Source: Krischvirus LF73P4. From it: a stretch of 64,000 bases of DNA. The DNA is taken from sequence record OZ035795.1. One strand, 5' to 3'. Under the pieces are notes generated by a model that was not told the origin of the DNA, made no database searches, and saw only the letters and a program-made list of their open reading frames with translations. Both the position numbers and the translations under genes were made by a program. This document shows positions 2,345 to 59,055 of this stretch, piece by piece; within the stretch, counting starts at the first letter, position 1, and every line of letters starts with the position of its first letter.

Positions 2345-2926
2345 ATGATTCAATGTGTATTTGCGATTGGTGACACTAAAATGTCGGATGAAAATTGGGC
2401 TTTTGGTTTTAAAGGCGGTTTACCGTGGGGTCGTCCAATCAAAAAGGACATGGAAAACTTTAAAATGCGCACTATGGGAGATGTTGATCTTGCGGCGGTT
2501 GTAATGGGACGCAATACCTTTGAAAGTCTTCCTAAAGCACTGGAAGGTCGTGTGAATGTGGTTGTTAGTACCGATACCAGTAAGCCAGCACCGAAAGCAA
2601 AAAACGGCGAACAACCTGATGTGTATACCGCGATTACTAATGATGGTGGATTGAAGGAATTATTAGAAGTCATAGAGAAATTGCAAGGTTTGGTAAGCGT
2701 TATCGGCGGACCTTCCCTGATTGAAAAAGCGGTTGACTTTGCGGACCGTATTGTGTTAACGTATGTTCAACGTTCAGGGGTCAACGATCCATTTGAATAT
2801 GATGTTGGTATCTCTAAGGAAATGATTCAGGAATTATATTTTGATTTTGCAACAAAAGAAGAACATAATTACTTCCTTGATGATTACCTGATCAGCGAAC
2901 AAATTTTAGAACGTAAGAAGGCGTAA
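2345..2926 (+). CDS. frd: dihydrofolate reductase
   Basis: 193 aa; DHFR signatures (GxGLPWG, VVMGRNTFESLP, VIGGxxL) and T4 frd position between 32 and td. Confidence 0.9.
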   Translation: MIQCVFAIGDTKMSDENWAFGFKGGLPWGRPIKKDMENFKMRTMGDVDLAAVVMGRNTFESLPKALEGRVNVVVSTDTSKPAPKAKNGEQPDVYTAITNDGGLKELLEVIEKLQGLVSVIGGPSLIEKAVDFADRIVLTYVQRSGVNDPFEYDVGISKEMIQELYFDFATKEEHNYFLDDYLISEQILERKKA

Positions 2927-2927
2927 C

Positions 2928-7133: not shown

Positions 7134-7983
7134 ATGAATTATTACAATGAGTGGGATAAAGGCGCGGCTAACTGGTTACGTGAACTTATAGCAAACAAAT
7201 TAATTCCTTATGGGTATGTCGATGAAAGATCAATTACAGAAGTCACCCCTAGAGATCTGGAAGGATTTACACAATGTCACTTCTTCGCGGGGATTGGGGG
7301 GTGGTCAAGAGCATTGCAACTCGCTGGAGTACCAGAAACAACAAGGCTATGGGCCGGATCGCCACCATGTCAACCATTTTCAAGAGCCGGAAAGCAAAAA
7401 GGAAAGTTCGACGAAAGACACCTTGCACCGACATTTCTTAAACTCGTGTCAGCGTGCAAACCTCCAATGCTCTTTGGGGAACAGGTTGCAAAAGCTATCG
7501 AAACCGGGTGGTTGGATGATCTTCACGAGGAATTGGAAAGAGAAGGTTACAGTGTCGGGGCTGCGGTATTATCATGTGATATCGTCGGTGCGCCGCACAA
7601 GCGGGACAGACTTTTCTTCGGGGCTATTAACGAGTTGGCAAACACCTACTGTAACGAATATATCAGCAAGATCGCCGGGCAATGCAACGGAGAATGGAAG
7701 CGAGACTTGCAACGGGGAGGAAATCACTAGCGCCGGGAAATTTATCAGAACAAGTGAAGATGTATTACGGTTTTGGGACAGTGGAACAGAGTATCTATGC
7801 AGAGACGGGAAAAAACGAATTGTTGAACCCACGATTCCCTTGTTGGCTGATGGGGTATCCTCAACAATGGGACGATTGCGCGGTTATGGCAATGCGATAG
7901 TTCCTCAAGTCGGAGCACTTTTTATAGAAAGTTTTGTAGGTGCTTACATTGATGCTTGCGATGGATTGTCAAATAGCTGTTGA
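7134..7983 (+). pseudogene. disrupted DNA (cytosine-5)-methyltransferase (motifs spread over three frames)
   Basis: frame of 7134: FAGIGGW (motif I), PPCQPFS (IV), FGEQV (VI-like), HKRDRLFFG (VIII), stop at 7730; frame of 7682: NPRFPCWLMGYP (motif IX-like), stop at 7900; frame ending 7983: RLRGYGNAIVPQV (motif X). At least two frame changes are needed for a full-length enzyme. Confidence 0.7.
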
Positions 7984-11542: not shown

Positions 11543-12004
11543 ATGATTAATGAGCTAATAGAAAACTATGGATTCGTTAAATATTCATGTTTAGAGTGTA
11601 AAGATGGTGATGTGATTCTGCCGCCTCAGAAGAACCGTTTAAATGTTCTTTACGCTATTGTTGTTGATGATGAACTGGTATACATTGGTCAGACTGTCAA
11701 TCTCAGAAAGCGGATCAATTATTACCGGACTAGCATTAACAGACAAACACCAACAGCGGATACTCGCAAGAGTAAGAATATTCATAAGGCGCTAGAGGAA
11801 GGTAAGACAGTAACATTCTATTACCGCCAGTGTTTTGAGTTGTACATCGAGAATCCAACGGGTAAGGATATTATAAGCACTGCCGATATCGAAGAACCTG
11901 TTTTGATCACCAAATTTAAACCAGAATGGAACACAAATTATGTCAACAAAAGAAAACAACAAAAAAGTTTTAGCATTGTTCAAAAATCTGATGGCACTAT
12001 GTGA
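11543..12004 (+). CDS. GIY-YIG nuclease-domain protein
   Basis: 153 aa; LYAIVVDDELVYIGQT...RKRINYY matches the GIY-(x10)-YIG + conserved Arg core; 3' end overlaps rnlA start by 65 nt. Confidence 0.6.
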   Translation: MINELIENYGFVKYSCLECKDGDVILPPQKNRLNVLYAIVVDDELVYIGQTVNLRKRINYYRTSINRQTPTADTRKSKNIHKALEEGKTVTFYYRQCFELYIENPTGKDIISTADIEEPVLITKFKPEWNTNYVNKRKQQKSFSIVQKSDGTM

Positions 12005-15029: not shown

Positions 15030-15536
15030 ATGTTGTCACAAACTTACATGCAGATCGCCTATCTGATCGCAAAGAACTCTAAATGTGTTTCGTGGAAGGT
15101 AGGCGCACTGATCGAAAAAGACGGGCGAATCATTTCTACTGGATTTAACGGAACTCCAGCAGGGCAAGTAAATTGTAGCTGTCATGCACATAAAAACGGT
15201 TGGCTGGATGATGACGGCAAAATGATCCCAGAAAAACGACCAGAGCATAGTGCATGGTCACAGAAAAACGAGATCCATGCTGAATTAAATGCTATTTTGT
15301 TTGCTGCCCGTAGCGGTGTATCGATTGAAGGCGCTAGTATGTGGTGTACTGCTTCACCGTGTCCAGATTGCGCTAAAGCAATTGCAAACAGTGGTATTAA
15401 ACATCTATACTATTGCGACACATATGATCGAAATGGTGGGCGTGATTGGGCTGATATTCTGAATAATGCAGATATTACGATCACGCGTATTCCAAAAGCA
15501 TTATTGACTGATTTGAAGGGTATTGATAATGACTGA
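15030..15536 (+). CDS. cd: dCMP deaminase
   Basis: 168 aa; cytidine/dCMP deaminase zinc motifs HAELNAI ... PCPDCAKAI. Confidence 0.85.
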   Translation: MLSQTYMQIAYLIAKNSKCVSWKVGALIEKDGRIISTGFNGTPAGQVNCSCHAHKNGWLDDDGKMIPEKRPEHSAWSQKNEIHAELNAILFAARSGVSIEGASMWCTASPCPDCAKAIANSGIKHLYYCDTYDRNGGRDWADILNNADITITRIPKALLTDLKGIDND

Positions 15537-16208: not shown

Positions 16209-16219
16209 TGATTTTAAAC

Positions 16220-18873: not shown

Positions 18874-18880
18874 CCATTAT

Positions 18881-19225: not shown

Positions 19226-19238
19226 TTCAAAAAAGTTG

Positions 19239-19267
19239 TTGACAGGGGATCACGTATCCCCTATACT
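19239..19267 (+). promoter_or_regulatory. PeSL-type promoter (hairpin GGGGATCACGTATCCCC in spacer)
   Basis: TTGACA 19239-19244, 17-nt hairpin spacer, TATACT 19262-19267, conserved leader + AAGGAGAATCAAAATG. Confidence 0.65.
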
Positions 19268-19309
19268 ACACACATCAAAACGAAACACACTTTCTTAAGG
19301 AGAATCAAA

Positions 19310-21102: not shown

Positions 21103-21534
21103 ATGGTTTATCCAACTCCTAGTAAGATTTACATTGACGATACTCATTTTCTTGTTGAAATTATGGGTATAAAGTTTAGTGGTAATGTTAAAATTGTAGA
21201 ATGGGAATTGCACGGTCAACCTGTAACCGATTATGACAATTATATCCCTTTCGGTGGCGATGATAACTTTGTTTCATTCGACCATGAAGGTTACATGAAC
21301 TTTGAGCAAGACGATGTACCTTTGTATCTGGCAATGATGGATATTCCTACCAAAACAGAATATACAGAGGGTGATTGCGATTGTTGCGGATACTACAGCG
21401 TAACAGATATTAAGCTGCCATCCGGTAAAGAACTTTACAAAGAGGATCATTTCGGAAACTGCAATTTTCCGTGTGATTGGCAAGAATTTTTTGAACTGGT
21501 AGAGATTGAGCGAACTTATTTGAGGAAGGGATAA
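21103..21534 (+). CDS. hypothetical protein (Cys-rich C-terminal half)
   Basis: 143 aa; CDCCGYY...CNFPC; ATGAGGATTATATAATG start context. Confidence 0.5.
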   Translation: MVYPTPSKIYIDDTHFLVEIMGIKFSGNVKIVEWELHGQPVTDYDNYIPFGGDDNFVSFDHEGYMNFEQDDVPLYLAMMDIPTKTEYTEGDCDCCGYYSVTDIKLPSGKELYKEDHFGNCNFPCDWQEFFELVEIERTYLRKG

Positions 21535-22346
21535 TGAAGAAAGCATTAGGTTTAATTCCCTATACGGGCAATAAGGAAAAGTTATTGCCTGGTGTTAGTA
21601 AGTATTTCCCTAAGCACTATAACCGCTTTGTCGATGCCTTTTGTGGCGGTTTGAGCGTGTCTCTGTACGTCGAAGGGGATGTTCTGGCTAATGACTATGA
21701 TCACCGCTTAATTGATGCTTACAAAGCGATTGACGAGTGTCCTGATCCGGTTTTTATGATCAAGCGGATTATTGCCGAAAATGGTTTGTCTCGTGATGAT
21801 AAAGATGCTTACATGGCATTCCGTAAGAAGTATAATGAGAATCCAGATCCGCTATCTCTGTTTGTTCTGATTCAGCACAGTTTTAGCAACATTAACCGCC
21901 ATAACCGGAAGGGCGAATTTAATGCTAATTTTGGTCGCCGGACTTTTAACGAAAACGCGGTAGAGCGTGTCCTGAATTTTAAGGAAGAAAACAAAGACGG
22001 TCGAATCAATTTTACGTCTGGTCGTTATGACGAGATCGAGATCTTGCCCGGTGATTTCGTTTATTTGGACCCGCCGTACCTTATCACTTCTGCGGAATAT
22101 AATAAGTTCTGGAGTGACGAGGAAGAGATTAAATTCTATCAGTGGGTGGAATCTATTATGGCGCGTGGTTTTCAGTTTGGTATCAGTAATGTCACGCATC
22201 ATAAGGGAAAGGTAAATGATCATCTTCTTGACTTTATCAAGCGGAATGATCTAAACTGCGTCCTGTTGAATAAGACCTATTGCCTAGATCGTTCAGGTGG
22301 CAAGTCTTCTGATACGCAAGAAGTTTATGTAACTAACGTAGATTGA
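21534..22346 (+). CDS. dam: DNA adenine methyltransferase (Dam)
   Basis: 270 aa; PYTGNK, FxKHYNRFVDAFCGGLSV (AdoMet motif), DPPY catalytic motif, collinear with T4 Dam. Confidence 0.85.
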   Translation: MKKALGLIPYTGNKEKLLPGVSKYFPKHYNRFVDAFCGGLSVSLYVEGDVLANDYDHRLIDAYKAIDECPDPVFMIKRIIAENGLSRDDKDAYMAFRKKYNENPDPLSLFVLIQHSFSNINRHNRKGEFNANFGRRTFNENAVERVLNFKEENKDGRINFTSGRYDEIEILPGDFVYLDPPYLITSAEYNKFWSDEEEIKFYQWVESIMARGFQFGISNVTHHKGKVNDHLLDFIKRNDLNCVLLNKTYCLDRSGGKSSDTQEVYVTNVD

Positions 22347-28385: not shown

Positions 28386-28402
28386 TAATGTGTGAGGTGA
28401 AT

Positions 28403-28930: not shown

Positions 28931-28934
28931 ATGC

Positions 28935-28963
28935 TTGACGGGGATCGCGAGATCCCCTATACT
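28935..28963 (+). promoter_or_regulatory. PeSL-type promoter (hairpin GGGGATCGCGAGATCCCC in spacer)
   Basis: TTGACG 28935-28940, 17-nt hairpin spacer, TATACT. Confidence 0.65.
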
Positions 28964-29005
28964 ATATTCATCAAGACGAGATACAACTTTACAGGAGAAT
29001 CAAAT

Positions 29006-29158
29006 ATGTGGACTTTACTGATTTGGGAAACTGAAAACGCACAAGTAGAAATCCGTGAATACGAATACCTAAGCCCAGCTTATCTATTGGCATCTCGCGG
29101 TGGTTACTATAAAGCGCAGATTGTAAACGAGTTCGGGGTAATTGAATATGAGTTCTGA
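29006..29158 (+). CDS. hypothetical small protein (50 aa)
   Basis: ATG after AGGAGAATCAAAT; internal start of track ORF 28931-29158. Confidence 0.4.
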   Translation: MWTLLIWETENAQVEIREYEYLSPAYLLASRGGYYKAQIVNEFGVIEYEF

Positions 29159-29651
29159 TACATACGGAAAACTACGCTATGCCGATATTAAAGATTGTGA
29201 TATGGTTAACGGTGAGGGAGTGAGAGTCTCCCTTTACGTTACCGGATGTTCACACGCATGTGATGGTTGCTTTAATGCTAGCCTACTCAATCCTAAGAAC
29301 GGGGAACCATTCACCGATGATACAATGGGATTGATTCTGGATCTGCTTAGACCTGATTTTATTCAGGGGCTAACATTCTTAGGTGGCGATCCACTGTATA
29401 AACGCAATTTAAAGGGTGTACAGCGGATCATCGATGAAGTAAAATCATGGATGCCAAATAAAGATATTTGGCTATGGTCCGGTTATACCCTTGACCAATT
29501 GAATGATGAGCAAAGAAAAATCGTAGAATCAGTTGACATGTTCATCGATGGGCGTTATATTAAAGATATGCCAACGAAGAAGCCGTGGCGGGGGTCTGAC
29601 AATCAAGTACAATACAAGATTGTTAATAGTATTCCAGTAAAAATTATTTGA
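29148..29651 (+). CDS. nrdG: anaerobic RNR activating enzyme (radical SAM)
   Basis: CSHACDGC (CxxxCxxC) cluster, GLTFLGGDPLY, DIWLWSGY, KKPWRGSDNQ as in T4 NrdG. Confidence 0.85.
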   Translation: MSSDTYGKLRYADIKDCDMVNGEGVRVSLYVTGCSHACDGCFNASLLNPKNGEPFTDDTMGLILDLLRPDFIQGLTFLGGDPLYKRNLKGVQRIIDEVKSWMPNKDIWLWSGYTLDQLNDEQRKIVESVDMFIDGRYIKDMPTKKPWRGSDNQVQYKIVNSIPVKII

Positions 29652-29661
29652 GGTGATTGCT

Positions 29662-30150
29662 ATGAAATGGGAATTGGGTAAGATGTACACTCTTGATGGT
29701 GATGAGAAGAAAGCAGAATTTACCAAATCTGAACTGTCAATCAACCGTCAAGTTGCTGAGTTTCTTGATGGACGTCCTTTTACAGTCGAGGTTATGAGTA
29801 ATGAGGGTCATGTTCTTGAAATCTCGTTAAGTGATGGTAAATGTATTTCTGTTCGAGACACTCCAATTGGTGCGCACGGTGCATGGTTTTGGGCTGGTGA
29901 ACGTCGATTCTTTAAAGAAGTTAAAGAACCAGATCTAACTTTAGAACGTCTGGGTCTGCTTATGGAAGCCTACGACATTCAGTTAATCGATAAGACGGGG
30001 TTACAACATAGTATTGCCAAAATTACTACCCTAGAAGGTATTAAGAGCGTTCTAAATGGTATGCCTAGCCGGATTGGTGCTATCCGCGAATACAAGCAAA
30101 CGCGAGACCGTATGATCCAATTAGAATCACGTATCAAAAATGAGAGATAA
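29662..30150 (+). CDS. MKWE-family paralogue 1
   Basis: ATG 29662; MKWELGKMYT...RPFTVEV...GERRFFKEVKE module + helical tail. Confidence 0.55.
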   Translation: MKWELGKMYTLDGDEKKAEFTKSELSINRQVAEFLDGRPFTVEVMSNEGHVLEISLSDGKCISVRDTPIGAHGAWFWAGERRFFKEVKEPDLTLERLGLLMEAYDIQLIDKTGLQHSIAKITTLEGIKSVLNGMPSRIGAIREYKQTRDRMIQLESRIKNER

Positions 30151-30154
30151 TATT

Positions 30155-30640
30155 ATGAAATGGGAAGAAGGTAAGACCTATGCGTTGGTTGGCGAATACG
30201 AAAAGCGTATTTTGCGTGATTGTTGGAGTTACGAACAAAGACCTAATATTGATGGTATGTTTACATATCTAGATAAACCATTTACTGTCGCTACGGTAGA
30301 CCGTTGGGGTAATGTGCGTTCAATCTATAATCACGAAGGGGATTATATTAGTTCTATCGATATTGGTGATAATATATGGTTTTCCGATGGTGACCGAGCG
30401 TGCTTCAAAGAAGTTTTATTACCTGGTCATGAATATGATCTAATAGACCTTCTCAAATTGGCGATGGATAATTATAAAATCCGCTTTGAATGCAAATCAC
30501 ATGCGGCTATCGGTGCTAACGCCTTGCGTCATATCTCCAGTTTTGAAGAGTTGAAAGATTTTCTTGACAAAATGCCGGAAAGGGTGCAAGCTATACAGGA
30601 AGCAGAGAAAGCATTAAACGAACTTGATAAAATCGGTTAA
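30155..30640 (+). CDS. MKWE-family paralogue 2
   Basis: MKWEEGKTYA...KPFTVATV...GDRACFKEVLL module + helical tail. Confidence 0.55.
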   Translation: MKWEEGKTYALVGEYEKRILRDCWSYEQRPNIDGMFTYLDKPFTVATVDRWGNVRSIYNHEGDYISSIDIGDNIWFSDGDRACFKEVLLPGHEYDLIDLLKLAMDNYKIRFECKSHAAIGANALRHISSFEELKDFLDKMPERVQAIQEAEKALNELDKIG

Positions 30641-30652
30641 GGGGAATATATT

Positions 30653-31477
30653 ATGAAATGGGAAATTGGTAAAACTTACACTTGGAAAGATGAAAACGCT
30701 AAAACTGAGTTTATTACTAACGGAGAAGGTGTTCTTTCTCCACTTAACAGCGATATTAGTGCATCTATTGGTGACAAGCCATTTACCATCATCGAGATCG
30801 ATGGCAACGGTTGGATTAATGCAATAGAGCTAGACGGTGTTTATCATACGGCGAAAACTGCTACAGGAAAAGACATTTGGACTGCAACATATTTCTTTAG
30901 TCCATTCGATAGAAAATTCTTTCGTGAAGTTGAAGAAGTTCCCCAGAAATGGGAAGTTGGTAAAACTTATACTTGGAAAGATGTGAATGCTATGACAGAC
31001 TTCTGCCATTATGCTGAAAACGTATCTAACCTTAATTATGTTATTGCACGAGCAATAAATTATAGACCTTTTACTGTTAAAAATGTTAGTCCATGTGGGC
31101 AAATTGATGTAATTGAAATTGATGGTAAAGACCATACTCTAATGAGCGCAACCGAAGATAGAGACCATAAAGGAACTAGCTGGTTTATTGATTCTGATAG
31201 AAAATTCTTTCGTGAAGTAGAAGAATTGGAAGTTATAACCACTGATTCTAAAATCGTTGGACAGTTGAAACGTCTGTTTAGTAGTCGTTACGGCCTGACA
31301 ATGGTTAAATTTGGCGAAGCAAATGAAGGTAAAACCTTTGAACGTTTCGATGATTTCATCGCAGCACTTGACAAGATGGACGAAATAATGCAAGATCGCC
31401 AGAAGATTAAAGACCTTCAAGAAGACATTAAACGTCGTGAAGTTGAATTTTTGATTGGTAAAGAGCGAGGATGGTAA
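30653..31477 (+). CDS. MKWE-family paralogue 3 (internal duplication, two modules)
   Basis: MKWEIGKTYTWKD...FDRKFFREVEEV then QKWEVGKTYTWKD...SDRKFFREVEELE; near-identical DNA repeats at 30657/30948 and 30908/31198. Confidence 0.6.
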   Translation: MKWEIGKTYTWKDENAKTEFITNGEGVLSPLNSDISASIGDKPFTIIEIDGNGWINAIELDGVYHTAKTATGKDIWTATYFFSPFDRKFFREVEEVPQKWEVGKTYTWKDVNAMTDFCHYAENVSNLNYVIARAINYRPFTVKNVSPCGQIDVIEIDGKDHTLMSATEDRDHKGTSWFIDSDRKFFREVEELEVITTDSKIVGQLKRLFSSRYGLTMVKFGEANEGKTFERFDDFIAALDKMDEIMQDRQKIKDLQEDIKRREVEFLIGKERGW

Positions 31478-31478
31478 T

Positions 31479-31958
31479 ATGTTTGTTGTTGGTATGACCT
31501 ATCAGTGGAAAAACGATCGAGCGCGGAAAGCCTTTGCAACCAGTGTTGCAAATGATGCAATAGCAGACTTTATCGGTGACCGTACATTTAAAGTTATCGC
31601 TTTTGAAAAAATTGCGTCAGATATCGAATATGTTTCTGCGATTGAAATTGATGGAAAAACATACACCTGTCGAGATGTTGATGATGTACGGGAATACGCG
31701 CACAACTGGTTTTTGCAATCAGAAGAACGTTATTTTAAAGTGGTGTCGTCAGAACTGACTACTGATGCAATGTTGGAACAATTTTTCAACAACTACGAAG
31801 TTTCTGTACGTCGCTATGGCGAAGAAGAAGTGTTTAAAATCGATGATTACAATCAGTTTAAACGAGTATTCGCCACTAAGTTGCAGCGTGACTTTGAACG
31901 TGACCAACGGATCAAGGAACTGGAAGAAGAATTGGAAAGATTAAAGGCTGAGAAATGA
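31479..31958 (+). CDS. MKWE-family paralogue 4 (divergent)
   Basis: MFVVGMTYQWKND...EERYFKVV module, C-terminal coiled coil RIKELEEELERLKAEK. Confidence 0.5.
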   Translation: MFVVGMTYQWKNDRARKAFATSVANDAIADFIGDRTFKVIAFEKIASDIEYVSAIEIDGKTYTCRDVDDVREYAHNWFLQSEERYFKVVSSELTTDAMLEQFFNNYEVSVRRYGEEEVFKIDDYNQFKRVFATKLQRDFERDQRIKELEEELERLKAEK

Positions 31959-34190: not shown

Positions 34191-34724
34191 GTGTCTGATT
34201 ATGTAAACAATAAAGAGCTTTACGAAGAAATTTGCCGTTGGAAACAACGAATTGCAGCAGAAGGTCGGCAAGTGCCAATGAGCGATCAAATCGGCCTGGC
34301 AATTATGCAAATCTCTAAAAATCTATCACGGCGTTTTAACTTTTCTGGCTATAGTCAAACATGGCGCGAAGAAATGATCGACGATGGAATCGAAGCGGCG
34401 GTCAAGGGTTTGATTAATTTTGACGAGACAAAGTATAAAAATCCTCATGCTTACATCACGCAAGCGTGCTTTAATGCTTTTGTACAGCGCATTAAAAAAG
34501 AGAGAACAGCGACAGCCGCAAAATACAAATATTTTGTGCATCATGTATATGACGAACGCGACGCTGATATGTGCCAGATTGCTGATGAGGCATTCATACA
34601 GGACATTTACGATAAAATCAACAACTACGAGGAATCGGTCAATAAACCGAAAGCGCCAAAGGTTGAAGATGTATTGACCGAGGAATTGCCTAGCTTGGAC
34701 CAATTTTATGAGATTGAAAATTAA
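34191..34724 (+). CDS. 55: late sigma factor gp55
   Basis: GTG start; YVNNKEL, [21 protein letters not shown], [28 protein letters not shown] nearly identical to T4 gp55. Confidence 0.9.
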
Positions 34725-35230: not shown

Positions 35231-35320
35231 TGGCTTTATAAGGGAGACTCTGAAAGGGGTTTCCCTTTTTATTTTTCTGTGATATAGTGAGAGCATCGAA
35301 AACGAAGAGAGGAAGAGACT

Positions 35321-36346
35321 ATGAAAATTTTGCTTTTAGGTGATCTGCATACTGGTATCGGTGGCGATGATCCGTGGGTGCATGAGTATATTCTTGATAC
35401 CATCAAGAAAGCGGTTGAATACTCCAAAGAGCATAATATTAAGACATGGATTCAAACAGGGGATTGGTTTGATTGCCGAAAAGCAATTACCCATGAAACC
35501 ATGAAATTTAACCGTACTAAGGTCATCCCGTTACTGGAAGAGGCTGATATTACTTGTTATATCACGGTCGGGAATCATGATATGTTTAAACGAAACAAGA
35601 TCCAGCCTAACGCACCGCGCGAAGTGTTAAGCCAGTATGATTGCATTAAGGTTATCGATAAACCGGAAACAGTTACCTTTGATGGTGTATCATTTGATCT
35701 GTTCCCGTGGTTTTGTGATGACAATAAATCAGAGGTTTTAGAGTTTATTCAAAACTCATTCAGCGAATATTGTGTAGGCCATTGGGAATTGTCCGGTTAC
35801 TATTTCTATAAAGGGCTAAAATCCGAAGGTTATAGCTCGGACTTCCTCAAGAAATACCGTGAAGTGTTTTCGGGTCACTTTCATACTATCAGTGATGGCG
35901 GTAACGTAACGTATATTGGTACACCATACACACTAACGGCGGGTGACGAAAACGATCCGCGTGGTTTTTGGGTATTCGATACCGATACACACAAAAAAGA
36001 GTTTATTCAGAATGACAAAACTTATCATGTGCGTATCACTTACCCGTCAGATGATAAAATCGATGTAGAACGCTTTAAAGGGCTTAGTGTGCGTCTTATC
36101 GCAACGGTCGCTGATAATGGATTAACTAAGTTAGAAAGCGCGTTAGAGGCCGTTGTACACAAGCTAAAAGTGGTCCATAAACTGGAGAGTAGCGCATCAC
36201 AGGAAACAGGTGTTATTGAAGTTAAAAGCACTATTCAGATGGTCTATGAATATCTGGAAGAACAAAACCTAGAACCGGAAGAACTTGCGGCGGTCAAGCG
36301 TATTTCTGATGAACTTTTAGCCGAAGTAAATAACGCAAAAAGTTAG
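35321..36346 (+). CDS. 47: recombination nuclease subunit gp47 (Mre11-like)
   Basis: 341 aa; calcineurin-like phosphoesterase motifs LGDLH, GDWFD, GNHD, GHxH. Confidence 0.85.
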   Translation: MKILLLGDLHTGIGGDDPWVHEYILDTIKKAVEYSKEHNIKTWIQTGDWFDCRKAITHETMKFNRTKVIPLLEEADITCYITVGNHDMFKRNKIQPNAPREVLSQYDCIKVIDKPETVTFDGVSFDLFPWFCDDNKSEVLEFIQNSFSEYCVGHWELSGYYFYKGLKSEGYSSDFLKKYREVFSGHFHTISDGGNVTYIGTPYTLTAGDENDPRGFWVFDTDTHKKEFIQNDKTYHVRITYPSDDKIDVERFKGLSVRLIATVADNGLTKLESALEAVVHKLKVVHKLESSASQETGVIEVKSTIQMVYEYLEEQNLEPEELAAVKRISDELLAEVNNAKS

Positions 36347-42779: not shown

Positions 42780-43142
42780 ATGATTGAAATTAATTTGATT
42801 AGTCCTGAAAACTTCCTTAAAATTAAGGAGACTTTAACCCGCTGCGGCATTGCCAACAATCGAGACAAGACGCTGTATCAGTCTTGTCATATTCTCCAGA
42901 AGAAAGGGCGCTATTACATCGTTCATTTCAAGGAGTTGTTGAAATTAGATGGTCGTAGTGTTAAAATGACGTGGGAAGATGAATTACGCCGTAATAACAT
43001 TGCAAAACTTCTGGCGCAGTGGAATCTGTGTACCCTGATTGATAGTGATTTTGAAACTACCGAAGTTAATAATTTCCGTGTATTGTCTTTCAAACAGAAA
43101 GAAGAGTGGACGCTGATCGAGAAATATCAGATCGGACGATAA
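42780..43142 (+). CDS. regA: translational repressor RegA
   Basis: 120 aa; MIEI, FLKxKETLTRxGIANNxDKxLYQSCHILQKKG, NNFRVxSFKQK nearly identical to T4 RegA. Confidence 0.9.
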   Translation: MIEINLISPENFLKIKETLTRCGIANNRDKTLYQSCHILQKKGRYYIVHFKELLKLDGRSVKMTWEDELRRNNIAKLLAQWNLCTLIDSDFETTEVNNFRVLSFKQKEEWTLIEKYQIGR

Positions 43143-43163
43143 GATACTGATGGGATAGGGGTA

Positions 43164-43192
43164 TTGACAAACTAAGTCGATTCCCCTATAAT
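43164..43192 (+). promoter_or_regulatory. sigma70-like promoter upstream of gene 43
   Basis: TTGACA 43164-43169, 17-nt spacer, TATAAT 43187-43192. Confidence 0.6.
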
Positions 43193-43224
43193 GAGTGTCT
43201 TTCGTAAGTGAAGGAGTTTATATT

Positions 43225-45903
43225 ATGTATTTTCTGTCATGTGAGCGAGTGGGTGATAAGATCTACGAGCGTTATATTGATGATGCTGGACAAGAACAAG
43301 AGCGTTACGTTGAATATACGCCAACTTTATTTCATCATGCCGCGCCCGGTATGGTTACGAATTATAAAGATATCTATGGCAAGCCTTGCATTGCTAAAAA
43401 ATTCCCATCTATGAACGAGGCCAACAAATGGCGTAAAAAGATGGGAGAAATGGGGCAGGAGGCACTAGGGATGGATGATTTTATCATCTCCTATCTGTCC
43501 GATACATATAAAGGCGAGATTCGATATGACCGAAATAAAATCCGTGTAGCCTGGGTTGATATTGAGGTCACTGCACCGGAATTTCCTAAACCAGAAGAAG
43601 CGAAATATCCTATCGATGCTATTACGCATTATGATTCCGTACATGATCGTTTCTTTGTATTTGATTTGAAAGGAAAAAACGGTGAAATCTGGGAAGCAAG
43701 CAAGTCTATTCTTCGACCTGATATTGTAGAGCGCGTTGTTTATAACGTCTATGACACAGAAGATGAATTGCTGTTAGAATACATCCGATTCTTTGAGGAA
43801 AACCGACCCGTTGGTTTCACTGGCTGGAACACAGAAACATTCGATATTCCATATATCATTAAACGTATCAGTAATAAGTTCGGAAGTAGAACCGCTAACC
43901 GTCTAAGCCCATGCGGTAAGATTAAATCCCGAATCTCGCAGGATGATTTTGGCAACGAGCGTGAAGCATTTACGATCATGGGGATCGAAAGCCTTGATTA
44001 TATTGACCTGTACAAGAAATTTAGCTTTACGACTCAACCAACATATGCATTAGATTATGTTGCTGAATATGAGACCGGAATCGGTAAGGTTGATTATGAT
44101 GGTCCGTTAAAGAAATTGCGTGATGACAACCATCAACTTTACATCGATTATAACATCGGCGACGTTGATCGTGTGCTGGCGATTGATAAAAAGCGTGGAT
44201 TTATCGATCTTGTGTATAGTCTATGTTTCTATGCAAAGATTAAATTTAACCATGTTTATAACCCGATGAAAGTATGGGATGCTATTATCTTCGGATCTCT
44301 GAAAGCAGAGGGTAAAGTAGTACCGGAAAATAAGATACAGCCTAAGCAGACTTATCCTGGCGCATTCGTAAAAGAACCTGTACCGAATGCTTACCGTTGG
44401 ATGATGAGCTTTGACTTAACAAGTCTGTACCCATCTATTATTCGACAGGTTAATATTTCTCCTGAAACAATCGCTGGATCTTTTGATGCTGCACCGATGC
44501 ACGAGTATATCAATAAAACTGCACCACGTCCGAGTGATGAGTATTCTTGCTCGCCTAACGGATGGATGTATAGAAAAGATATTCACGGTATCGTACCGAT
44601 TGAGATTAAAAAGGTATTCGATCAGCGTAAGCAGTACAAAAACATGATGTTGGCATGTGATCGCAATGCTGAACTCTGTAAAGCGATTCTACACGATGAA
44701 AATCATGTTTATGGGGGAACCATTAGCTATAGCGTTGAAGTGCGTCACGACTTCGATGAAGCGTTTAAATCGATGCTTTCTGAATTGAGCAAAGATGCCT
44801 TAGAGAAATTGCTGGAAGAATGTAAAGACGAGTCGATCTTGTGCAATACAAACCAGCTTTCTCGAAAAGTTTTGATCAACTCCCTTTATGGTGCGTTGGG
44901 GAATCCTAAATTCCGTTTTTATGATCTCCGTAACGCTAGTGCGATCACACTGTTCGGTCAGCTTGCAATTCAGTGGATTGAGCGTAAGATTAACGAATAC
45001 TTAAACGAGCTTTGCGGAACGACTGATTTTGCATATGTTCGTTATTGTGATACTGACTCCGTTTATGTGCTGGTTAACAATGTTATTGATAAGGTTGGCG
45101 GGGAAGACCGTTTCGACGATACCGAAAAACTTGTTGACTTCCTTGATAATTTCGGTAAACATCGAATGGAACCTATTATCGACAAGGGATATCGCGAGTT
45201 ATGCGAGTACATGAACAACTATGAGCACTTGATGTTTATGGACCGTGAGGCAATTGCTGGTCCTCCGTTGAAATCTGCGGGTATCGGTGGATTCTGGACT
45301 GGTAAAAAGCGTTATGCTCTTAATGTTTGGGATATGGAAGGAACGCGCTTTGCTGAACCTAAGCTAAAAATCATGGGCTTGGAAACGCAACGTAGCTCCA
45401 CCCCTAAAGCATGTCAGAAATCACTGAAAGAATGTATTCGCCGTATGTTGCAGGAAGGTGAAGAGTCATTGCAGGAATACTACGGTATTTTTGAGCAAGA
45501 ATTTAGAAAACTTGACTATCTTGATGTTGCTGCGGTATCATCTGCAAACAACCTACAGAAATACAGCGATTCAAACGGGTATCCGATTAAGGGTTGTCCG
45601 TATGCGGTTAAGAGTGTATTGTGTTATAATCGTAATGCTCGAAAATTCGGACTAGACCCGATTCGTGAGGGTGAGAAGGTTATGATTGTACCGCTTAAAG
45701 ACCGAAATCCGTTTGGAGAAATCTGTTTTGGTTGGTTGTCTGGTACTCGTATTCCACCAGAAATTGAATCAGAGGTGTTGAAGTGGTTGGACTGGCCTTT
45801 GTTGTTTAATAAGACTTTCGTCAAACCACTGGAGAACATTACCACGGCTGCAAAGCTGCAATATGAAAAAGTTGCTTCACTGACTGACCTGTTTGACATT
45901 TAA
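43225..45903 (+). CDS. 43: DNA polymerase gp43 (family B)
   Basis: ATG 43225; exo motifs (VAWVDIEV, YNIGDVD), pol motifs SLYPSII, KILINSLYGALG, YCDTDS; collinear with T4 gp43. Confidence 0.95.
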   Translation: MYFLSCERVGDKIYERYIDDAGQEQERYVEYTPTLFHHAAPGMVTNYKDIYGKPCIAKKFPSMNEANKWRKKMGEMGQEALGMDDFIISYLSDTYKGEIRYDRNKIRVAWVDIEVTAPEFPKPEEAKYPIDAITHYDSVHDRFFVFDLKGKNGEIWEASKSILRPDIVERVVYNVYDTEDELLLEYIRFFEENRPVGFTGWNTETFDIPYIIKRISNKFGSRTANRLSPCGKIKSRISQDDFGNEREAFTIMGIESLDYIDLYKKFSFTTQPTYALDYVAEYETGIGKVDYDGPLKKLRDDNHQLYIDYNIGDVDRVLAIDKKRGFIDLVYSLCFYAKIKFNHVYNPMKVWDAIIFGSLKAEGKVVPENKIQPKQTYPGAFVKEPVPNAYRWMMSFDLTSLYPSIIRQVNISPETIAGSFDAAPMHEYINKTAPRPSDEYSCSPNGWMYRKDIHGIVPIEIKKVFDQRKQYKNMMLACDRNAELCKAILHDENHVYGGTISYSVEVRHDFDEAFKSMLSELSKDALEKLLEECKDESILCNTNQLSRKVLINSLYGALGNPKFRFYDLRNASAITLFGQLAIQWIERKINEYLNELCGTTDFAYVRYCDTDSVYVLVNNVIDKVGGEDRFDDTEKLVDFLDNFGKHRMEPIIDKGYRELCEYMNNYEHLMFMDREAIAGPPLKSAGIGGFWTGKKRYALNVWDMEGTRFAEPKLKIMGLETQRSSTPKACQKSLKECIRRMLQEGEESLQEYYGIFEQEFRKLDYLDVAAVSSANNLQKYSDSNGYPIKGCPYAVKSVLCYNRNARKFGLDPIREGEKVMIVPLKDRNPFGEICFGWLSGTRIPPEIESEVLKWLDWPLLFNKTFVKPLENITTAAKLQYEKVASLTDLFDI

Positions 45904-45964
45904 GATAAAGTGTGTATAATGGCGGGTGTTGGGTGACGATACCCGCCAATGTGAGAAATATATT

Positions 45965-46153
45965 ATGAGAGACATTGAAAAGATTAAACGTGAACGTGAG
46001 GAAGGCATAGAGCATTTCAAGAAAGTTCACGGAAATCACAGCAACGAAGTATTTGTGACGATCAATGTTGATGCGATGAAAAAGTTAATTCAAGAGCACT
46101 ACAAAGATCGAATAACAATGAAGCAATTAAAGTATTACGGATTAACTGAATAG
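45965..46153 (+). CDS. hypothetical protein
   Basis: 62 aa; only ORF between gene 43 and uvsX. Confidence 0.4.
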   Translation: MRDIEKIKREREEGIEHFKKVHGNHSNEVFVTINVDAMKKLIQEHYKDRITMKQLKYYGLTE

Positions 46154-46164
46154 AGGTATTAATA

Positions 46165-47235
46165 ATGTCTGTACTGGAAAAACTGAAAAAGAACTCTACC
46201 CTGAAAACTACTGCGGTACTGTCTAAATCCAGCTTCTTTAACGAAAAAACAAATACTCGCACTAAGATCCCGATGCTGAATATTGCGTTTTCAGGTGATC
46301 TTAAAAAGGGCTTTCAATCTGGTCTGATTTTCTTTGCTGGTCCGTCTAAGCACTTTAAATCAAACATGGGATTAACTTGTGTTAGTGCATACATGAAACA
46401 GAATCCTGATGCGGCGTGTTTGTTCTTTGATTCTGAGTTCGGTATTACACCCGCTTATCTTGAATCTATGGGTGTAGATCCTGATCGCGTGGTGCATGTT
46501 CCAATCAAGAACATCGAAGAACTTAAATTTGAAATCATGAACCAGCTTGAGCAAATTACCCGTGAAGATAAAGTGATCATCTTTATTGACTCAATCGGTA
46601 ACTTAGCAAGTAAAAAAGAAGTTGAAGACGCGATTAATGAGAAATCCGCACAGGATATGACGCGAGCTAAAGCACTTAAAGGCTTGTTCCGTATGGTGAC
46701 GCCATATCTGACTATGAATGATATCCCGTGCATCGCTATTAACCACACTTACGAAACGCAAGAAATGTTTAGTAAGACCGTTATGTCCGGCGGTACGGGC
46801 GCGATGTATTCAGCCAATGAAGTTTTCATTATTGGTCGTCGTCAGCAGAAAGAAGGAACCGAAATTACTGGTTATGATTTTATCCTGAATGCGGAAAAAT
46901 CACGAACCGTTAAAGAAAAATCTAAGTTCCCGATTAGCGTAACATTTAGCGGTGGTATCGATCCTTATTCCGGCTTGCTGGAATTGGCTGTAGAGTTAGG
47001 CTGGGTAGTGAAACCGTCAAACGGCTGGTATTCTCGTTCAATCCTAAATACCGAGACCGGAGAGATGGAAACCGAAGAACGCAAGTTCCGTGCTAAAGAA
47101 ACCAATAGCATTGAGTTCTGGAAACCACTTCTGACAAACGATAAGTTTAACGAAGCAATCAACGATCATTATAAGCTGGGGCAAGTGATCAGCGACGAAG
47201 CAGTTGACAAAGAAATCGAAGATATGTTAGCATAA
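46165..47235 (+). CDS. uvsX: recombinase UvsX (RecA-like)
   Basis: 356 aa; Walker A GPSKHFKS, collinear with T4 UvsX (FFDSEFGITPAYLESMGVDP, INHTYETQEMFSKTVMSGGTG, KSRTVKEKSKF). Confidence 0.95.
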   Translation: MSVLEKLKKNSTLKTTAVLSKSSFFNEKTNTRTKIPMLNIAFSGDLKKGFQSGLIFFAGPSKHFKSNMGLTCVSAYMKQNPDAACLFFDSEFGITPAYLESMGVDPDRVVHVPIKNIEELKFEIMNQLEQITREDKVIIFIDSIGNLASKKEVEDAINEKSAQDMTRAKALKGLFRMVTPYLTMNDIPCIAINHTYETQEMFSKTVMSGGTGAMYSANEVFIIGRRQQKEGTEITGYDFILNAEKSRTVKEKSKFPISVTFSGGIDPYSGLLELAVELGWVVKPSNGWYSRSILNTETGEMETEERKFRAKETNSIEFWKPLLTNDKFNEAINDHYKLGQVISDEAVDKEIEDMLA

Positions 47236-47246
47236 CAATGGTAGTA

Positions 47247-47269
47247 AAGGGGCTACGTGCCCCTTTTTC
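47247..47269 (+). terminator. rho-independent terminator after uvsX
   Basis: AAGGGGC-TACG-TGCCCCTT hairpin + TTTT. Confidence 0.6.
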
Positions 47270-47290
47270 ATATCTAGAGAGGATTATATT

Positions 47291-47608
47291 ATGGATAAGA
47301 AACCAACAAGTTTAGAAGAAGCACACAGCTTGATTCAAGAAGCAATGAAGACAGTTATCCAGGAACTGATAATTGTTGATGAAGAGGGAGAACATCATAT
47401 TGTCTATATTCATAATGTTGAATACGATCCAGACACTAAAGGTATTATGGTCGACTACTCCACGCCGTCAGATCGTGATGTGGTATATCCACACGTCATT
47501 AAGGCGTTAACCGCGCAGATCAAAGAAGCAGAAGAAAAGTTGAAAAAAGAAACTTTCTGGTATAAACTCAAGACCTTTGTTATGCGTGTAGTTGGGGGCT
47601 ATGTATGA
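47291..47608 (+). CDS. hypothetical protein (gene-40 position)
   Basis: 105 aa; GAGGATTATATTATG start; positional only. Confidence 0.4.
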   Translation: MDKKPTSLEEAHSLIQEAMKTVIQELIIVDEEGEHHIVYIHNVEYDPDTKGIMVDYSTPSDRDVVYPHVIKALTAQIKEAEEKLKKETFWYKLKTFVMRVVGGYV

Positions 47609-49017
47609 TTAAAACTATCTTTTCACAGTTGATTTACAATGGCGCATTCTTTACGAATGTATGGCCTCACCTTAAAGCGGACTACTTCACCGAAGACGAA
47701 GAAAAACTGATTTATAAGCTGATTAAAAAGCACGTAGACGAATATTCCAATATTCCTACGCCAACAGCATTACAGATTGCTTTAGACAAGGAGAGAGGCA
47801 ATCAGACAACATATGAAGGGGCGAAAACTCTTCTTGATTCGCTTGAGAATACACCGGAAGACCTTGATTGGTTAATGAAGGAAACCGAAAAATTTATTCG
47901 TGACCGCGCTATGTATAATGCAATGTCACGGGCGCTAGAGATTCAGGCGAACGCACAACTACCAAAAGAGAAACAGAATAAGAAATTGCCTAGTGAGGGC
48001 GCTATTCCTGAAATTATGCAGGAAGCACTATCCATTACGTTTGATTCTGATGTAGGTCATGACTGGTTTAATGACTTTGAAAAACGATTCTTGCTATATC
48101 AGACTAAGGCGAATAAGATCCCATTTAAGCTGCCGATGTTGAATAAAATCACGAAAGGAGGGGCGGAAAGAAAAACGCTAAATGTGTTGCTTGCTGGTGT
48201 AAACGTTGGTAAATCGCTTGGATTGTGTTCTCTTGCTGCGGATTATATGGAATGTGGTTATGATGTATTGTATATCTCAATGGAGATGGCAGAGCATGTC
48301 GTAGCCAAACGTATCGACGCAAACTTGCTTGACATTACATTAGATGAATTGGATAATGGTAATGTTTCTTTTGCGGAATATTCCGCACGCATGAAGCGTG
48401 TTAAGAATAAGAAGATCGGGGATCGTCCGGTTGGAAAATTGATGATCAAGCAGTATCCGACTGGTGGCGCGAACTCCAATCACTTTGAGGCGTTAATGAA
48501 TGAATTGCGACTCAAGAAACAGTTTAAACCTGATGTTGTGATTGTTGACTATCTTGGGATTTGCGCATCGTCTCGCTTGCGTGTATACTCTGAAAATAGT
48601 TACACACTAGTTAAGGCGATTGCGGAAGAACTGCGAGGATTTTTTGTTAAGTGGGATGTTGTTGGTTGGACTGCGGCACAGACTACCCGCGCTGGTTGGG
48701 ATGCTTCCGACCTTAACATGAGTGATACCGCTGAATCAGCAGGTCTTCCGGCTACAGCCGACTTTATGTTGGGTGTTATCGAAACCGAAGACCTGGCTAA
48801 AATGGGCGTCCAACTCATGAAGCAGATCAAGTCTCGTTACGGTGATAAGAACTATTATTCACGGTTTAACGTTGGTGTGAAGAAAGGCAATCAGCGTTGG
48901 TATGAAGTACCAAACCAGATCGCAGATCAGGAGAACGCACAAGTTAAACCACAAAGCGCACAGCAAGCCGAGAAACGCGAAAAACTCGACGAGCTAGCAA
49001 ATACCATGACTTTCTAA
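47605..49017 (+). CDS. 41: replicative DNA helicase gp41 (DnaB-like)
   Basis: 470 aa; Walker A AGVNVGKS, Walker B DVVIVDYLG, DnaB-family architecture. Confidence 0.9.
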   Translation: MIKTIFSQLIYNGAFFTNVWPHLKADYFTEDEEKLIYKLIKKHVDEYSNIPTPTALQIALDKERGNQTTYEGAKTLLDSLENTPEDLDWLMKETEKFIRDRAMYNAMSRALEIQANAQLPKEKQNKKLPSEGAIPEIMQEALSITFDSDVGHDWFNDFEKRFLLYQTKANKIPFKLPMLNKITKGGAERKTLNVLLAGVNVGKSLGLCSLAADYMECGYDVLYISMEMAEHVVAKRIDANLLDITLDELDNGNVSFAEYSARMKRVKNKKIGDRPVGKLMIKQYPTGGANSNHFEALMNELRLKKQFKPDVVIVDYLGICASSRLRVYSENSYTLVKAIAEELRGFFVKWDVVGWTAAQTTRAGWDASDLNMSDTAESAGLPATADFMLGVIETEDLAKMGVQLMKQIKSRYGDKNYYSRFNVGVKKGNQRWYEVPNQIADQENAQVKPQSAQQAEKREKLDELANTMTF

Positions 49018-51687: not shown

Positions 51688-52206
51688 ATGTCAGAATTTA
51701 ATTCTTGTGCTGGTCTGGTTAACGAAAAAGATATTAACGCGGCTATCGCCGCATATCATCACGCTATTGCAGAAGGTAAAGATCCGTTTCAGGTGATGCT
51801 CGAAATGCAAACTGGTTTGCAGGTTGCATTATCCGAAAAATTTGATTGGGTCCCAAATCCAACTAAGCTAGAGACTTGCGGTGAAATGCTGGATTGGATG
51901 CAACGGATGGATGACGCTATCGCAGACGAAACACGAGAGCTTTACACATCGCTGGGTGGAATGTCCAATGGTAAAGATGCAAGTGCAATCTGGAAAATGT
52001 GGAAAAAGAACCACGGAGAAGCGCGAGCGCGTAAATTCTCTGAACTGTCACCGGAAGATCAGCTTGAAGTGAAATTTGAATTTGTGGACGCGATCCACTT
52101 CATTCTGTCAAAGATGATCCCGCTGGGTATTGACGCTCAAGAACTCTTTATTCTGTACTATCTGAAAAATGCTGAAAACTTCGCCCGTCAAGAACGCGGC
52201 TACTAA
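51688..52206 (+). CDS. 56: dCTPase/dUTPase gp56
   Basis: ATG 51688; collinear with T4 gp56 (DPxQVMLxMQ, PxKLETxG, SPEDQLExKFExVDxxHFxL, LYYLKNxENFARQxRGY). Confidence 0.85.
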   Translation: MSEFNSCAGLVNEKDINAAIAAYHHAIAEGKDPFQVMLEMQTGLQVALSEKFDWVPNPTKLETCGEMLDWMQRMDDAIADETRELYTSLGGMSNGKDASAIWKMWKKNHGEARARKFSELSPEDQLEVKFEFVDAIHFILSKMIPLGIDAQELFILYYLKNAENFARQERGY

Positions 52207-58491: not shown

Positions 58492-59055
58492 ATGAAAAGT
58501 GCGAAATTTTGGAATACTGAAATTCAAGAGGAATTAAAACGAAGATTTGGACACACGGAAGGTGTTCTATATCACAAAACAAATAGTCCGTCTTTTAATG
58601 GTCTGCCAGAGGGATATTTCTACCAAGTCGGTGATAAAGTAAAAACAAAAAAGTTAAATTACGGTCATTTGGCAATAGATGTTTACAATAAGGTTAAAAA
58701 GAGAACATCTACATATCTTGTACATAGAATTGTCTGGTTTCTTGAATATGGAACACAGGTTAAGGTAATAGACCACATAGACGGGAATCCAGAAAACAAC
58801 AATCCACCAAATTTACGGGAGGCAACACAACAACAAAACATGTACAATAAAAAGAAAATGGACGGGTGCACGAGCATATATAATGGTGTTACTCATCGCA
58901 AAGGATCTAGCAAAAGACCGTGGCAAGCACAAATAAGGATAAACGGATACAGAAAATACATAGGATCGTTTGCTACTCAGGAGGAAGCCGCTAGAGCATA
59001 TGATGAATATGCAAAAATTCATCATGGGGAGTTTGCATCTTTAAATTTTAGTTGA
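58492..59055 (+). CDS. HNH homing-endonuclease-like protein with AP2 DNA-binding domain
   Basis: 187 aa; HRIVW...IDHIDGNPENNNPPNLR (HNH_3-type) then YNGVTHRK...WQAQIRINGYRKYIGSFATQEEAARAYDE (AP2-like); AT-rich, AGA/AGG/ATA-rich codon usage unlike neighbours. Confidence 0.7.
   Translation: MKSAKFWNTEIQEELKRRFGHTEGVLYHKTNSPSFNGLPEGYFYQVGDKVKTKKLNYGHLAIDVYNKVKKRTSTYLVHRIVWFLEYGTQVKVIDHIDGNPENNNPPNLREATQQQNMYNKKKMDGCTSIYNGVTHRKGSSKRPWQAQIRINGYRKYIGSFATQEEAARAYDEYAKIHHGEFASLNFS

Follow-up and report, generated by a model that had tools for sequence, protein, structure and literature searches.

Why would a relative of bacteriophage T4 keep gp56, a dCTPase that T4 uses in excluding cytosine from its DNA, when the genes for making and glucosylating 5-hydroxymethylcytosine (hmC) are missing from their usual places? 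The question is raised by Krischvirus LF73P4 (sequence record OZ035795.1), from which we analyzed a stretch of 64,000 nucleotides, hereafter the window, and in particular by the short gap between its DNA polymerase gene (43) and its recombinase gene (uvsX). In T4, that interval holds imm, gene 42 (dCMP hydroxymethylase) and the beta-glucosyltransferase gene b-gt, and the alpha-glucosyltransferase gene a-gt lies between genes 55 and 47, a layout given in the original prediction and borne out by the T4 record. We conclude that Krischvirus very probably has no hmC pathway, carries ordinary cytosine in its virion DNA, and keeps gp56 as a dUTPase belonging to its set of nucleotide-precursor enzymes. 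The argument draws on which genes are present or absent, on synteny, on motifs that are intact, on purifying selection and on restriction-site avoidance, and takes the canonical cytosine of phages RB49 and TB34 from the literature. That RB49-type phages lack genes 42, a-gt and b-gt, have cytosine DNA and retain gp56 and denA has already been published, and in these respects the present result is a correct rediscovery. The extreme avoidance of palindromes described below is an addition of this analysis to the known biology of these phages.

The window comes from the early region of a Krischvirus, one of the RB49-like, "pseudo-T-even" coliphages. Compared by megablast with 50,697 phage records as three large pieces, it was matched over almost its whole length by Krischvirus genomes with 96-99.7% nucleotide identity. 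Positions 1-19313 were 96.6-96.9% identical to RB49 and FL04, positions 19219-43999 were 97.7% identical to FL04, and positions 43000-48000 were 99.7% identical to FL04 and 98-99% identical to KMB43, RB49, JSE and others. The G+C content was ~40% all along the window, and the gene order was that of RB49, except at one junction at 19.2 kb.

The gap between genes 43 and uvsX (positions 45904-46164) measured exactly 261 bp and contained a single open reading frame (ORF) of 62 amino acids, just as had been predicted, and the corresponding T4 interval spans 3,635 bp and encodes imm.1, imm, 42, b-gt and segA. The protein of the gap ORF differed by one or two amino acids from its counterparts in RB49 and FL04 and matched no Pfam family. 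It was rejected as a remnant of imm, imm.1, gp42 or b-gt, since tblastn found no similarity to those T4 proteins. All of the 58 database genomes covering the region were collinear with the window there, and no hydroxymethylase or glycosyltransferase was found in this region in any of these 58 records, those of the Krischvirus isolates SAP and TB34 included. The only insertions across the 58 genomes were HNH endonucleases inside gene 43 of several relatives. The same 261-bp gap, with the same promoter and 62-amino-acid ORF, is shared by the Krischviruses RB49, phi1, JSE, FL04 and KMB43.

Promoter-early stem-loop (PeSL) elements have been defined previously, and the gene 43 locus was noted as bearing them (PMC2839356). 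At positions 45893-45965, a sigma-70-like promoter, a stable stem-loop and the start of a small ORF at 45965 follow one another in the intergenic spacer, and the promoter and hairpin are predicted to form a PeSL-type cassette. The RB49 record annotates the same promoter site as a "hypothetical early promoter". The predicted cassette resembles the PeSL cassettes of RB49 and phi1 in its consensus sigma-70 promoter, its G+C-rich stem-loop and its intergenic position ahead of a small ORF. Its hairpin lies past the -10 box, whereas that of a second PeSL in the window, at 19.2 kb, lies between the -35 box and the -10 box. The cassette in the gap would drive the lineage-specific 62-amino-acid ORF.

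The interval between genes 55 and 47 was likewise short (596 bp) and held homologues of a-gt.5 and a-gt.4 alone, which have 77 and 95 amino acids and are the two small ORFs that had been the only ones foreseen there. In T4, the same interval spans 3,152 bp and contains a-gt.5, a-gt.4, a-gt.3, a-gt.2, mobB, a-gt and 47.1. Neither small ORF showed tblastn similarity to imm, 42, b-gt or a-gt, and both were rejected as remnants of these genes. The Krischviruses RB49, phi1, JSE, FL04 and KMB43 also carry a-gt.5 and a-gt.4 in this interval. In RB49, a-gt.4 is additionally separated from gene 47 by an HNH endonuclease, which is absent from the window (35231-35320), and this difference shows that the slot before gene 47 is plastic. 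The window is compact at the very places where T4 has its hmC and glucosylation cassettes.

We searched two sequences with 21 T4 proteins (tblastn), namely the window itself and the whole genome of its closest relative, FL04 (162,587 bp). No match better than E 0.1 was found in either for a-gt, b-gt, imm, imm.1, alc, denB, ndd and ipI; for the alpha- and beta-glucosyltransferases, nothing better than E 0.2 was seen in either sequence, in a search that a very divergent enzyme could escape. The gaps yielded no trace of gene 42, b-gt or a-gt by tblastn. Pfam searches of 30 further ORFs, 20 in the window plus the 10 largest FL04 ORFs that lie outside it and carry no annotation, revealed neither a glycosyltransferase nor a second protein of the thymidylate synthase family. 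Among the functions directed against cytosine DNA, alc and denB were found in neither the window nor FL04, and denA alone was present. Matches to gp56, dam, cd, denA and frd were obtained in both sequences, and gene 1, outside the window, was matched in FL04 only (gp1, 36% identity). The original prediction had allowed that gene 42 may lie outside the window; none exists in the complete FL04 genome, and this possibility falls away at least for the 97-99% identical relatives.

T4 gp42 did match one gene, td, which is the sole member of the thymidylate synthase family. The match was at family level, with E values of 9e-5 in the window and 0.006 in FL04. At the position of E. coli ThyA N177, td has Asn (PFN motif) where T4 gp42 has Asp, and C286 of td aligns with C146 of the E. 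coli enzyme. No enzyme of this family with Asp at the specificity position was found in the window or in FL04. The idea that td is a disguised hydroxymethylase was ruled out by the Asn at the specificity position, the 48% identity to ThyA and the TIGR03284 equivalog score. Judged from these alignments, td is a dUMP methylase (thymidylate synthase) and not a dCMP hydroxymethylase. The E. coli ThyA and Dut query sequences served as probes and alignment references only. The td protein owes its length of 407 amino acids to an insert of ~130 residues, aligned between E. coli residues ~85 and 90. The td segment was ~90% identical to FL04, and its flanks ~98%.

Published work agrees with this gene content. 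Gene 42 is absent from RB49-, RB43-, Aeh1- and KVP40-type phages (PMC2993671), and Petrov et al. reported gene 42, alc and denB to be absent from RB49-type phages. RB49- and RB43-type phages keep DenA and the dCTPase-dUTPase without any genes for making non-canonical bases (PMC8056088, PMC12115623). Krischvirus has been tabulated as dCTPase-positive, hmC-negative, denB-negative, denA-positive, ndd-negative and alc-negative (PMC12115623 Table 4), and its hmC-negative score recurs elsewhere (PMC2993671 Table 4, PMC13390438). At the level of chemistry, the DNA of RB49 yields to both HpaII and NheI and has neither hmC nor glucosylated hmC (PMC4041780), and Krischvirus TB34 contained canonical nucleosides only by high-performance liquid chromatography and mass spectrometry (HPLC/MS) (PMC13390438).

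Furthermore, the composition of the genomes fits unmodified DNA. Hexamer counts were compared with maximal-order Markov expectations in the whole of FL04 (162.6 kb), in the window, and in 60 kb of T4 DNA, most of it orthologous. In FL04, 23 of the 62 testable six-base palindromes occurred only 0-2 times, with 4-65 copies expected; examples are TCCGGA (1 observed, 65.5 expected), GAATTC (1, 47.6), AAGCTT (0, 38.4) and GGATCC (1, 34.1). The median ratio of observed to expected counts was 0.64 for palindromes and 1.00 for ~4,000 non-palindromic hexamers (p = 2e-24, Mann-Whitney test), and the window alone gave a palindrome median of 0.62 (p = 1e-19). The palindrome median in T4 was 0.92, with only 2 of 51 palindromes below 0.4. 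The shorter sites GGCC and CCWGG had ratios of 0.40-0.53 here and ~1.0-1.4 in T4, whereas GATC was not avoided here (1.02-1.06) and was avoided in T4 (0.37). AT-only palindromes were mostly not avoided. The sites of enzymes that cut RB49 (HpaII CCGG, NheI GCTAGC, XbaI TCTAGA and DraI TTTAAA) were not purged, in agreement with the published digests; FL04 has 323 copies of CCGG.

This purge fits the pattern expected of DNA that has long been exposed to type II restriction enzymes, and it lends independent support, from the sequence alone, to a long history as unmodified cytosine DNA. Nothing specific on restriction-site avoidance in RB49 was found in the literature. Host restriction would in this case be met by the purging of sites and not by hypermodified bases; the phage also encodes an intact Dam methylase. 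The claim that the DNA contains cytosine rather than glucosylated hmC is supported by the gene absence in FL04, the chemistry of RB49 and TB34, the avoidance of sites, and a C5-cytosine methyltransferase in sister phages. Virion DNA of LF73P4 itself is probably unmodified as well.

C5-cytosine methyltransferases need an unsubstituted C5 on DNA cytosine. The presence of such an enzyme in the lineage fits cytosine DNA on the grounds of its family chemistry. The gene lies between nrdA and nrdB, in the slot of mobE in T4, and only 3 of 82 matching records (KMB43, Delraymugoa and Aragogtheria) have it in common; an intact ORF of 279-283 amino acids was checked in KMB43 and Delraymugoa. In the window, "AA" is missing near position 7678 (CCGGAAGCAATG changed to CCGGGCAATG) and the ORF ends at 198 amino acids; it retains motifs I (FAGIGG) and IV (PPCQPFS), and the C-terminal part including GNAIVP is out of frame. 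This frameshifted Dcm-like gene between nrdA and nrdB sets the window apart from most Krischviruses, and the adjacency at 19.2 kb sets it apart from all database genomes. The original prediction had also counted the Dam and decayed Dcm methyltransferases in favor of cytosine DNA. The description of both genes stood, with dam intact and the Dcm-like gene broken, but the argument from Dam is weak because T4 also has Dam. It has been speculated that the C5-methyltransferase protects phages from their own DenA and gp56 (PMC8056088). However, the Dcm-like methylase cannot be a general shield of this kind, because most Krischvirus genomes are without the gene and it is frameshifted here.

We then come to gp56 itself. 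Its retention at positions 51688-52206, at full length, is confirmed, but it is the rule rather than an oddity, contrary to the suggestion that it was notable. Gene 56 is present in all sequenced T4 relatives except four giant Aeromonas and Vibrio phages, which have a host-type dUTPase instead (PMC2993671). The same survey regarded gp56 as the supplier of an essential dUTPase function, replaced by a host-like dUTPase where it is lacking (PMC2993671). Homologues of gp56 were found in 1,399 phage records and those of gp42 in 965, of which 191 were Microbacterium phages, and neither gene 56 nor gene 1 is specific to hmC phages. RB43-type phages (Pseudotevenvirus) and Slopekvirus (KP15/KP27) are likewise T4-related and keep gp56, but their proteins are 51-54% identical to that of the window and they belong to different genera with different hosts. 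Pseudotevenvirus is scored hmC-negative (PMC12115623 Table 4), and RB43 has been named together with RB49 as having DenA and the dCTPase-dUTPase without hmC genes (PMC8056088).

The window, RB49 and FL04 encode the same gp56 protein, and the six codons at which the genes differ are all synonymous. Another Krischvirus allele (MIZ3 type, ~20 records) is likewise intact and has 69% protein identity (31% different), and the ratio of nonsynonymous to synonymous substitution rates (dN/dS) between it and the window allele was 0.21. These codon comparisons indicate that gp56 is under purifying selection. The existence of two intact alleles suggests allelic replacement by recombination.

Ten gp56 proteins were aligned, those of the hmC phages T4, HY03 and PG7 together with representatives of Krischvirus, Slopekvirus and Pseudotevenvirus. 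The alignment contained 51 invariant columns, including the motifs DE.REL, E..D..HF and LK...N..R. Residues that split hmC from cytosine phages (S6 versus E6, WVP versus an N-R motif, C65 versus A) were rejected as markers of function, since in these ten sequences they track phylogeny (Tevenvirinae versus the rest). Membership in the dimeric all-alpha dUTPase/dCTPase family (PF08761; 1W2Y; T4 gp56) follows from orthology with T4 gp56 over the full length, although the protein passes the PF08761 profile only at the borderline (24.8 bits, gathering cut-off 22.9). A single gp56 sequence matched nothing among the Protein Data Bank sequences, and a profile of eight gp56 sequences reached the dimeric dUTPase of Campylobacter jejuni (1W2Y) weakly (E 0.012), with both acidic motifs and the conserved stretches E..D..HF and KN..N..RQ..GY aligned. 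What distinguishes the present case within this family is its setting, a phage whose own DNA has to be supplied with dCTP. No homologue of the trimeric Dut was found in the window or FL04 with the E. coli query, and gp56 is predicted to be the only recognisable dUTPase of the phage.

We propose that gp56 is kept as part of a conserved precursor set (nrdAB, nrdDG, td, frd, cd, tk, gene 1 and gene 56) and not for hmC synthesis. It would keep uracil out of the DNA and make dUMP directly from dUTP and dUDP, and possibly add dUMP by way of dCTP and dCDP, which would yield dCMP for the Cd deaminase. Td and Frd would then convert dUMP to dTMP for a genome of ~60% A+T. We infer that gp56 acts mainly on dUTP, with a dCTPase activity that is little or tightly balanced. 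The phages would lack gene 42, both glucosyltransferases and the hmC-dependent functions alc, denB and ipI, as well as ndd and imm.

Table 1 Features of the window on which the analysis is based, grouped by locus.
Feature	Coordinates	Strand	Evidence
Gene 43 DNA polymerase, left border of the gap	43195..45903	+	Pfam DNA_pol_B and exonuclease domain; 55% identity to T4 gp43 over 903 amino acids (tblastn); RB49p026
Early sigma-70 promoter, TTGACA-16 nt-TATAAT	45893..45920	+	12/12 matches (promoter scan); overlaps gp43 stop codon
G+C-rich hairpin directly past the -10 box	45920..45948	+	Fold -23.7 kcal/mol, z = -5.7; 0/200 shuffles as stable
62-amino-acid ORF, only gene in the gap	45965 (ATG)..46153 (stop)	+	RB49p025 homologue; phrog_12120 E 1e-41
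uvsX recombinase, right border of the gap	46165..47235	+	Pfam T4_UVSX_C and RecA; 64% identity to T4 UvsX (tblastn)
Gene 55 late sigma factor	34191..34724	+	61% identity to T4 gp55 (tblastn); RB49p043
a-gt.5 homologue, 77 amino acids	34708..34941	+	tblastn with T4 a-gt.5 E 6e-8; phrog_1169
a-gt.4 homologue, 95 amino acids	34943..35230	+	Pfam DUF2654 E 1e-22; tblastn with T4 a-gt.4 E 1e-12; phrog_951
Gene 47 nuclease subunit	35321..36346	+	Pfam Metallophos; 56% identity to T4 gp47 (tblastn)
Gene 56 dCTPase/dUTPase homologue, 172 amino acids, intact	51688..52206	+	49% identity to T4 gp56 over residues 1-171, E 7e-51 (tblastn); phrog_173 E 5e-37
td thymidylate synthase, 407 amino acids	3261..4484	+	TIGR03284 277 bits (cut-off 108); PF00303; 48% identity to E. 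coli ThyA
frd dihydrofolate reductase	2345..2926	+	Pfam DHFR_1; 37% identity to T4 Frd
cd dCMP deaminase	15030..15536	+	56% identity to T4 Cd; Pfam dCMP_cyt_deam_1
denA endonuclease II homologue	11543..12004	+	49% identity to T4 DenA; GIY-YIG
dam DNA adenine methyltransferase, intact	21534..22346	+	TIGR00571 149.6 bits (cut-off 114.85); PF02086; 47% identity to T4 Dam
C5-cytosine DNA methyltransferase pseudogene	7134..7983	+	PF00145 E 5e-19 on the 198-amino-acid 5' ORF; PPCQPFS motif at 7365

Several observations weigh against an unmodified genome with gp56 as its dUTPase. In T4, DenA starts the breakdown of cytosine DNA. Yet a DenA homologue is kept here, in a phage that would have to spare its own cytosine DNA. 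The catalytic motifs of gp56 are conserved as they are in hmC phages and give no sign in the sequence of a lost dCTPase activity, and a literature search turned up no biochemistry of gp56 from a Krischvirus. Only 64 kb of the genome is visible, no known Krischvirus is collinear with it at 19.2 kb, and the content of the remainder is taken from relatives. Finally, a 2026 report found by HPLC/MS that the DNA of isolate SAP contained ~1/3 5-hydroxymethyldeoxycytidine (5-hmdC) and ~2/3 alpha-gentiobiosyl-mdC, and that BrxU cuts it (PMC13390438). According to the same report, SAP is 99.96% identical to the unmodified TB34 and is without known pathway genes (PMC13390438).

The alternative that survives best concerns the history of the lineage. 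It supposes that the ancestor of Krischvirus contained hmC and that the complete suite disappeared long ago, instead of never having been there, the gaps being deletion scars at hyperplastic sites bounded by PeSLs, and we consider it possible but rather unlikely. The a-gt.4 and a-gt.5 genes, which flank a-gt in T4, still stand beside gene 55, denA and gp56 are present and were tied to the exclusion of cytosine DNA in T4, and the predicted PeSL lies exactly at the 43-uvsX site, where such elements mediate the gain and loss of cassettes; the HNH endonuclease seen in RB49 and absent from the window likewise marks the slot after a-gt.4 as plastic. However, no pseudogene remnants were left behind, the taxonomy of the record puts Krischvirus outside Tevenvirinae, and gp56 and denA have roles independent of hmC. 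In addition, the absence of gene 42 from RB49-, RB43-, Aeh1- and KVP40-type phages makes its gain in Tevenvirinae equally parsimonious (PMC2993671).

It is very improbable that an unrecognised pathway gives Krischviruses hydroxymethylated or glycosylated cytosine, with gp56 as a true dCTPase that clears dCTP and feeds dCMP into it. We give equally little credit to a more specific form, in which only some Krischviruses replace cytosine by means of enzymes unrelated to gene 42 and to known glucosyltransferases, gp56 being the dCTP-clearing first step and the trait being toggled by a few nucleotide differences. The HPLC/MS and BrxU data on SAP speak for such a pathway, which its authors declared unknown (PMC13390438), as do the catalytic motifs that gp56 shares with hmC phages and the many window ORFs without known function. 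Against it, TB34 has canonical cytosine, and an analysis of single-nucleotide polymorphisms between SAP and TB34 gave no candidate gene (PMC13390438); RB49 DNA is unmodified (PMC4041780). The 43-uvsX region of SAP is collinear with the window. The genome-wide purge of sites indicates long exposure as unmodified DNA, and the 6-bp purge weighs against the claim of T-even-type cytosine modification in SAP. Sister phages retain an intact C5-methyltransferase of a family unable, by established chemistry, to act on 5-substituted cytosine, and the single thymidylate-synthase-family gene is of the dUMP type. Moreover, seven Tequatrovirus phages of that collection have the same modification profile as SAP (PMC13390438), which suggests to us a mix-up of stock, sample or DNA.

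That gp56 is a functionless, decaying relic after a recent loss of the hmC pathway is extremely improbable. Its cytosine-excluding role in T4 is obsolete here, and a neighboring modification gene, the Dcm-like one, is indeed a pseudogene. Yet the gp56 ORF is full-length, the codon differences from RB49 and FL04 are all synonymous, its dN/dS against the MIZ3 allele is low, and every family-invariant residue is retained. The gene also persists in Krischvirus, Slopekvirus and Pseudotevenvirus (the non-hmC genera sampled, Slopekvirus being a presumed one), the gaps hold no remnants of 42, b-gt or a-gt, and no other dUTPase is encoded. Lastly, a mere relocation of gene 42 and the glucosyltransferases to DNA outside the window, with hmC or glucosyl-hmC still made and gp56 working as in T4, is barely credible: the visible 64 kb and the odd 19.2-kb junction do mean that the organisation of the genome is not fully known, but the complete genome of FL04 (97-99.7% identical) is without homologues of gp42, a-gt and b-gt, its largest unannotated ORFs have no glycosyltransferase or thymidylate synthase domain, surveys score Krischvirus as hmC-negative (PMC12115623, PMC2993671, PMC13390438), alc and denB, which are distributed like gene 42, are also absent, and the avoidance of restriction sites would be pointless for glucosylated hmC DNA.

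Krischvirus may be set beside T4 as follows. Like the glucosyl-hmC system of T4, it has orthologues of 56, denA, cd, td, frd and dam in the window and of gene 1 in FL04, and the order of the flanking replication genes is kept. Unlike T4, the window and FL04 are without 42, a-gt, b-gt, alc, denB, ndd, ipI and imm, the two intervals measure 261 bp (3,635 bp in T4) and 596 bp (3,152 bp in T4), and restriction sites are avoided. Krischviruses are found in phage therapy collections and can be edited with Cas9, and the ordinary nature of their DNA accounts for their high frequency of transduction.

The remaining observations concern the layout of the window. On the plus strand, as read from the RB49 and FL04 annotations, its genes form three blocks. 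The first comprises 59, 32, frd, td, nrdA, the Dcm-like gene, nrdB, denA, rnlA, pseT, cd, 31 and 30. The second comprises dam, nrdC, 49, nrdD, nrdG, nrdH, 55, a-gt.5, a-gt.4, 47, 46, 45, 44, 62, regA and 43, and the third the 62-amino-acid ORF, uvsX, 40, 41, 61, 56, modB, srd, dda, dexA, 39, rIIA and rIIB. Positions 1-19313 correspond to FL04 67970-87399, and the window from 19219 onward corresponds to FL04 from 2148 onward. The 94-bp overlap (19219-19313) is a PeSL repeat, TTGACA-GGGGATCACGTATCCCC-TATACT with a conserved leader, and FL04 has it at each of the two sites.

At this junction (context 18860-19330), the gene-30 block is joined to the hyperplastic region upstream of dam, at the head of the dam/nrdC block, and ~77-80 kb including all late genes is omitted. 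The adjacency was found in none of 58 Krischvirus records, and a pattern search of IMG/VR returned no match. A control pattern did retrieve two Krischvirus contigs from IMG/VR, in which homology to the window begins only at the PeSL and neither of which has the adjacency. The junction would be either a recombinant molecule formed through the PeSL or an assembly chimera, and it leaves the finding on gp56 and hmC unaffected. Around nrdG, positions 27843-31958 hold six successive ORFs of 165-274 amino acids (equivalents of RB49p048-p055) without a Pfam family. HNH ORFs occur in the window after gene 30 (18400-18873) and after gene 39 (58492-59055), the latter with HNH_3 and AP2 domains.

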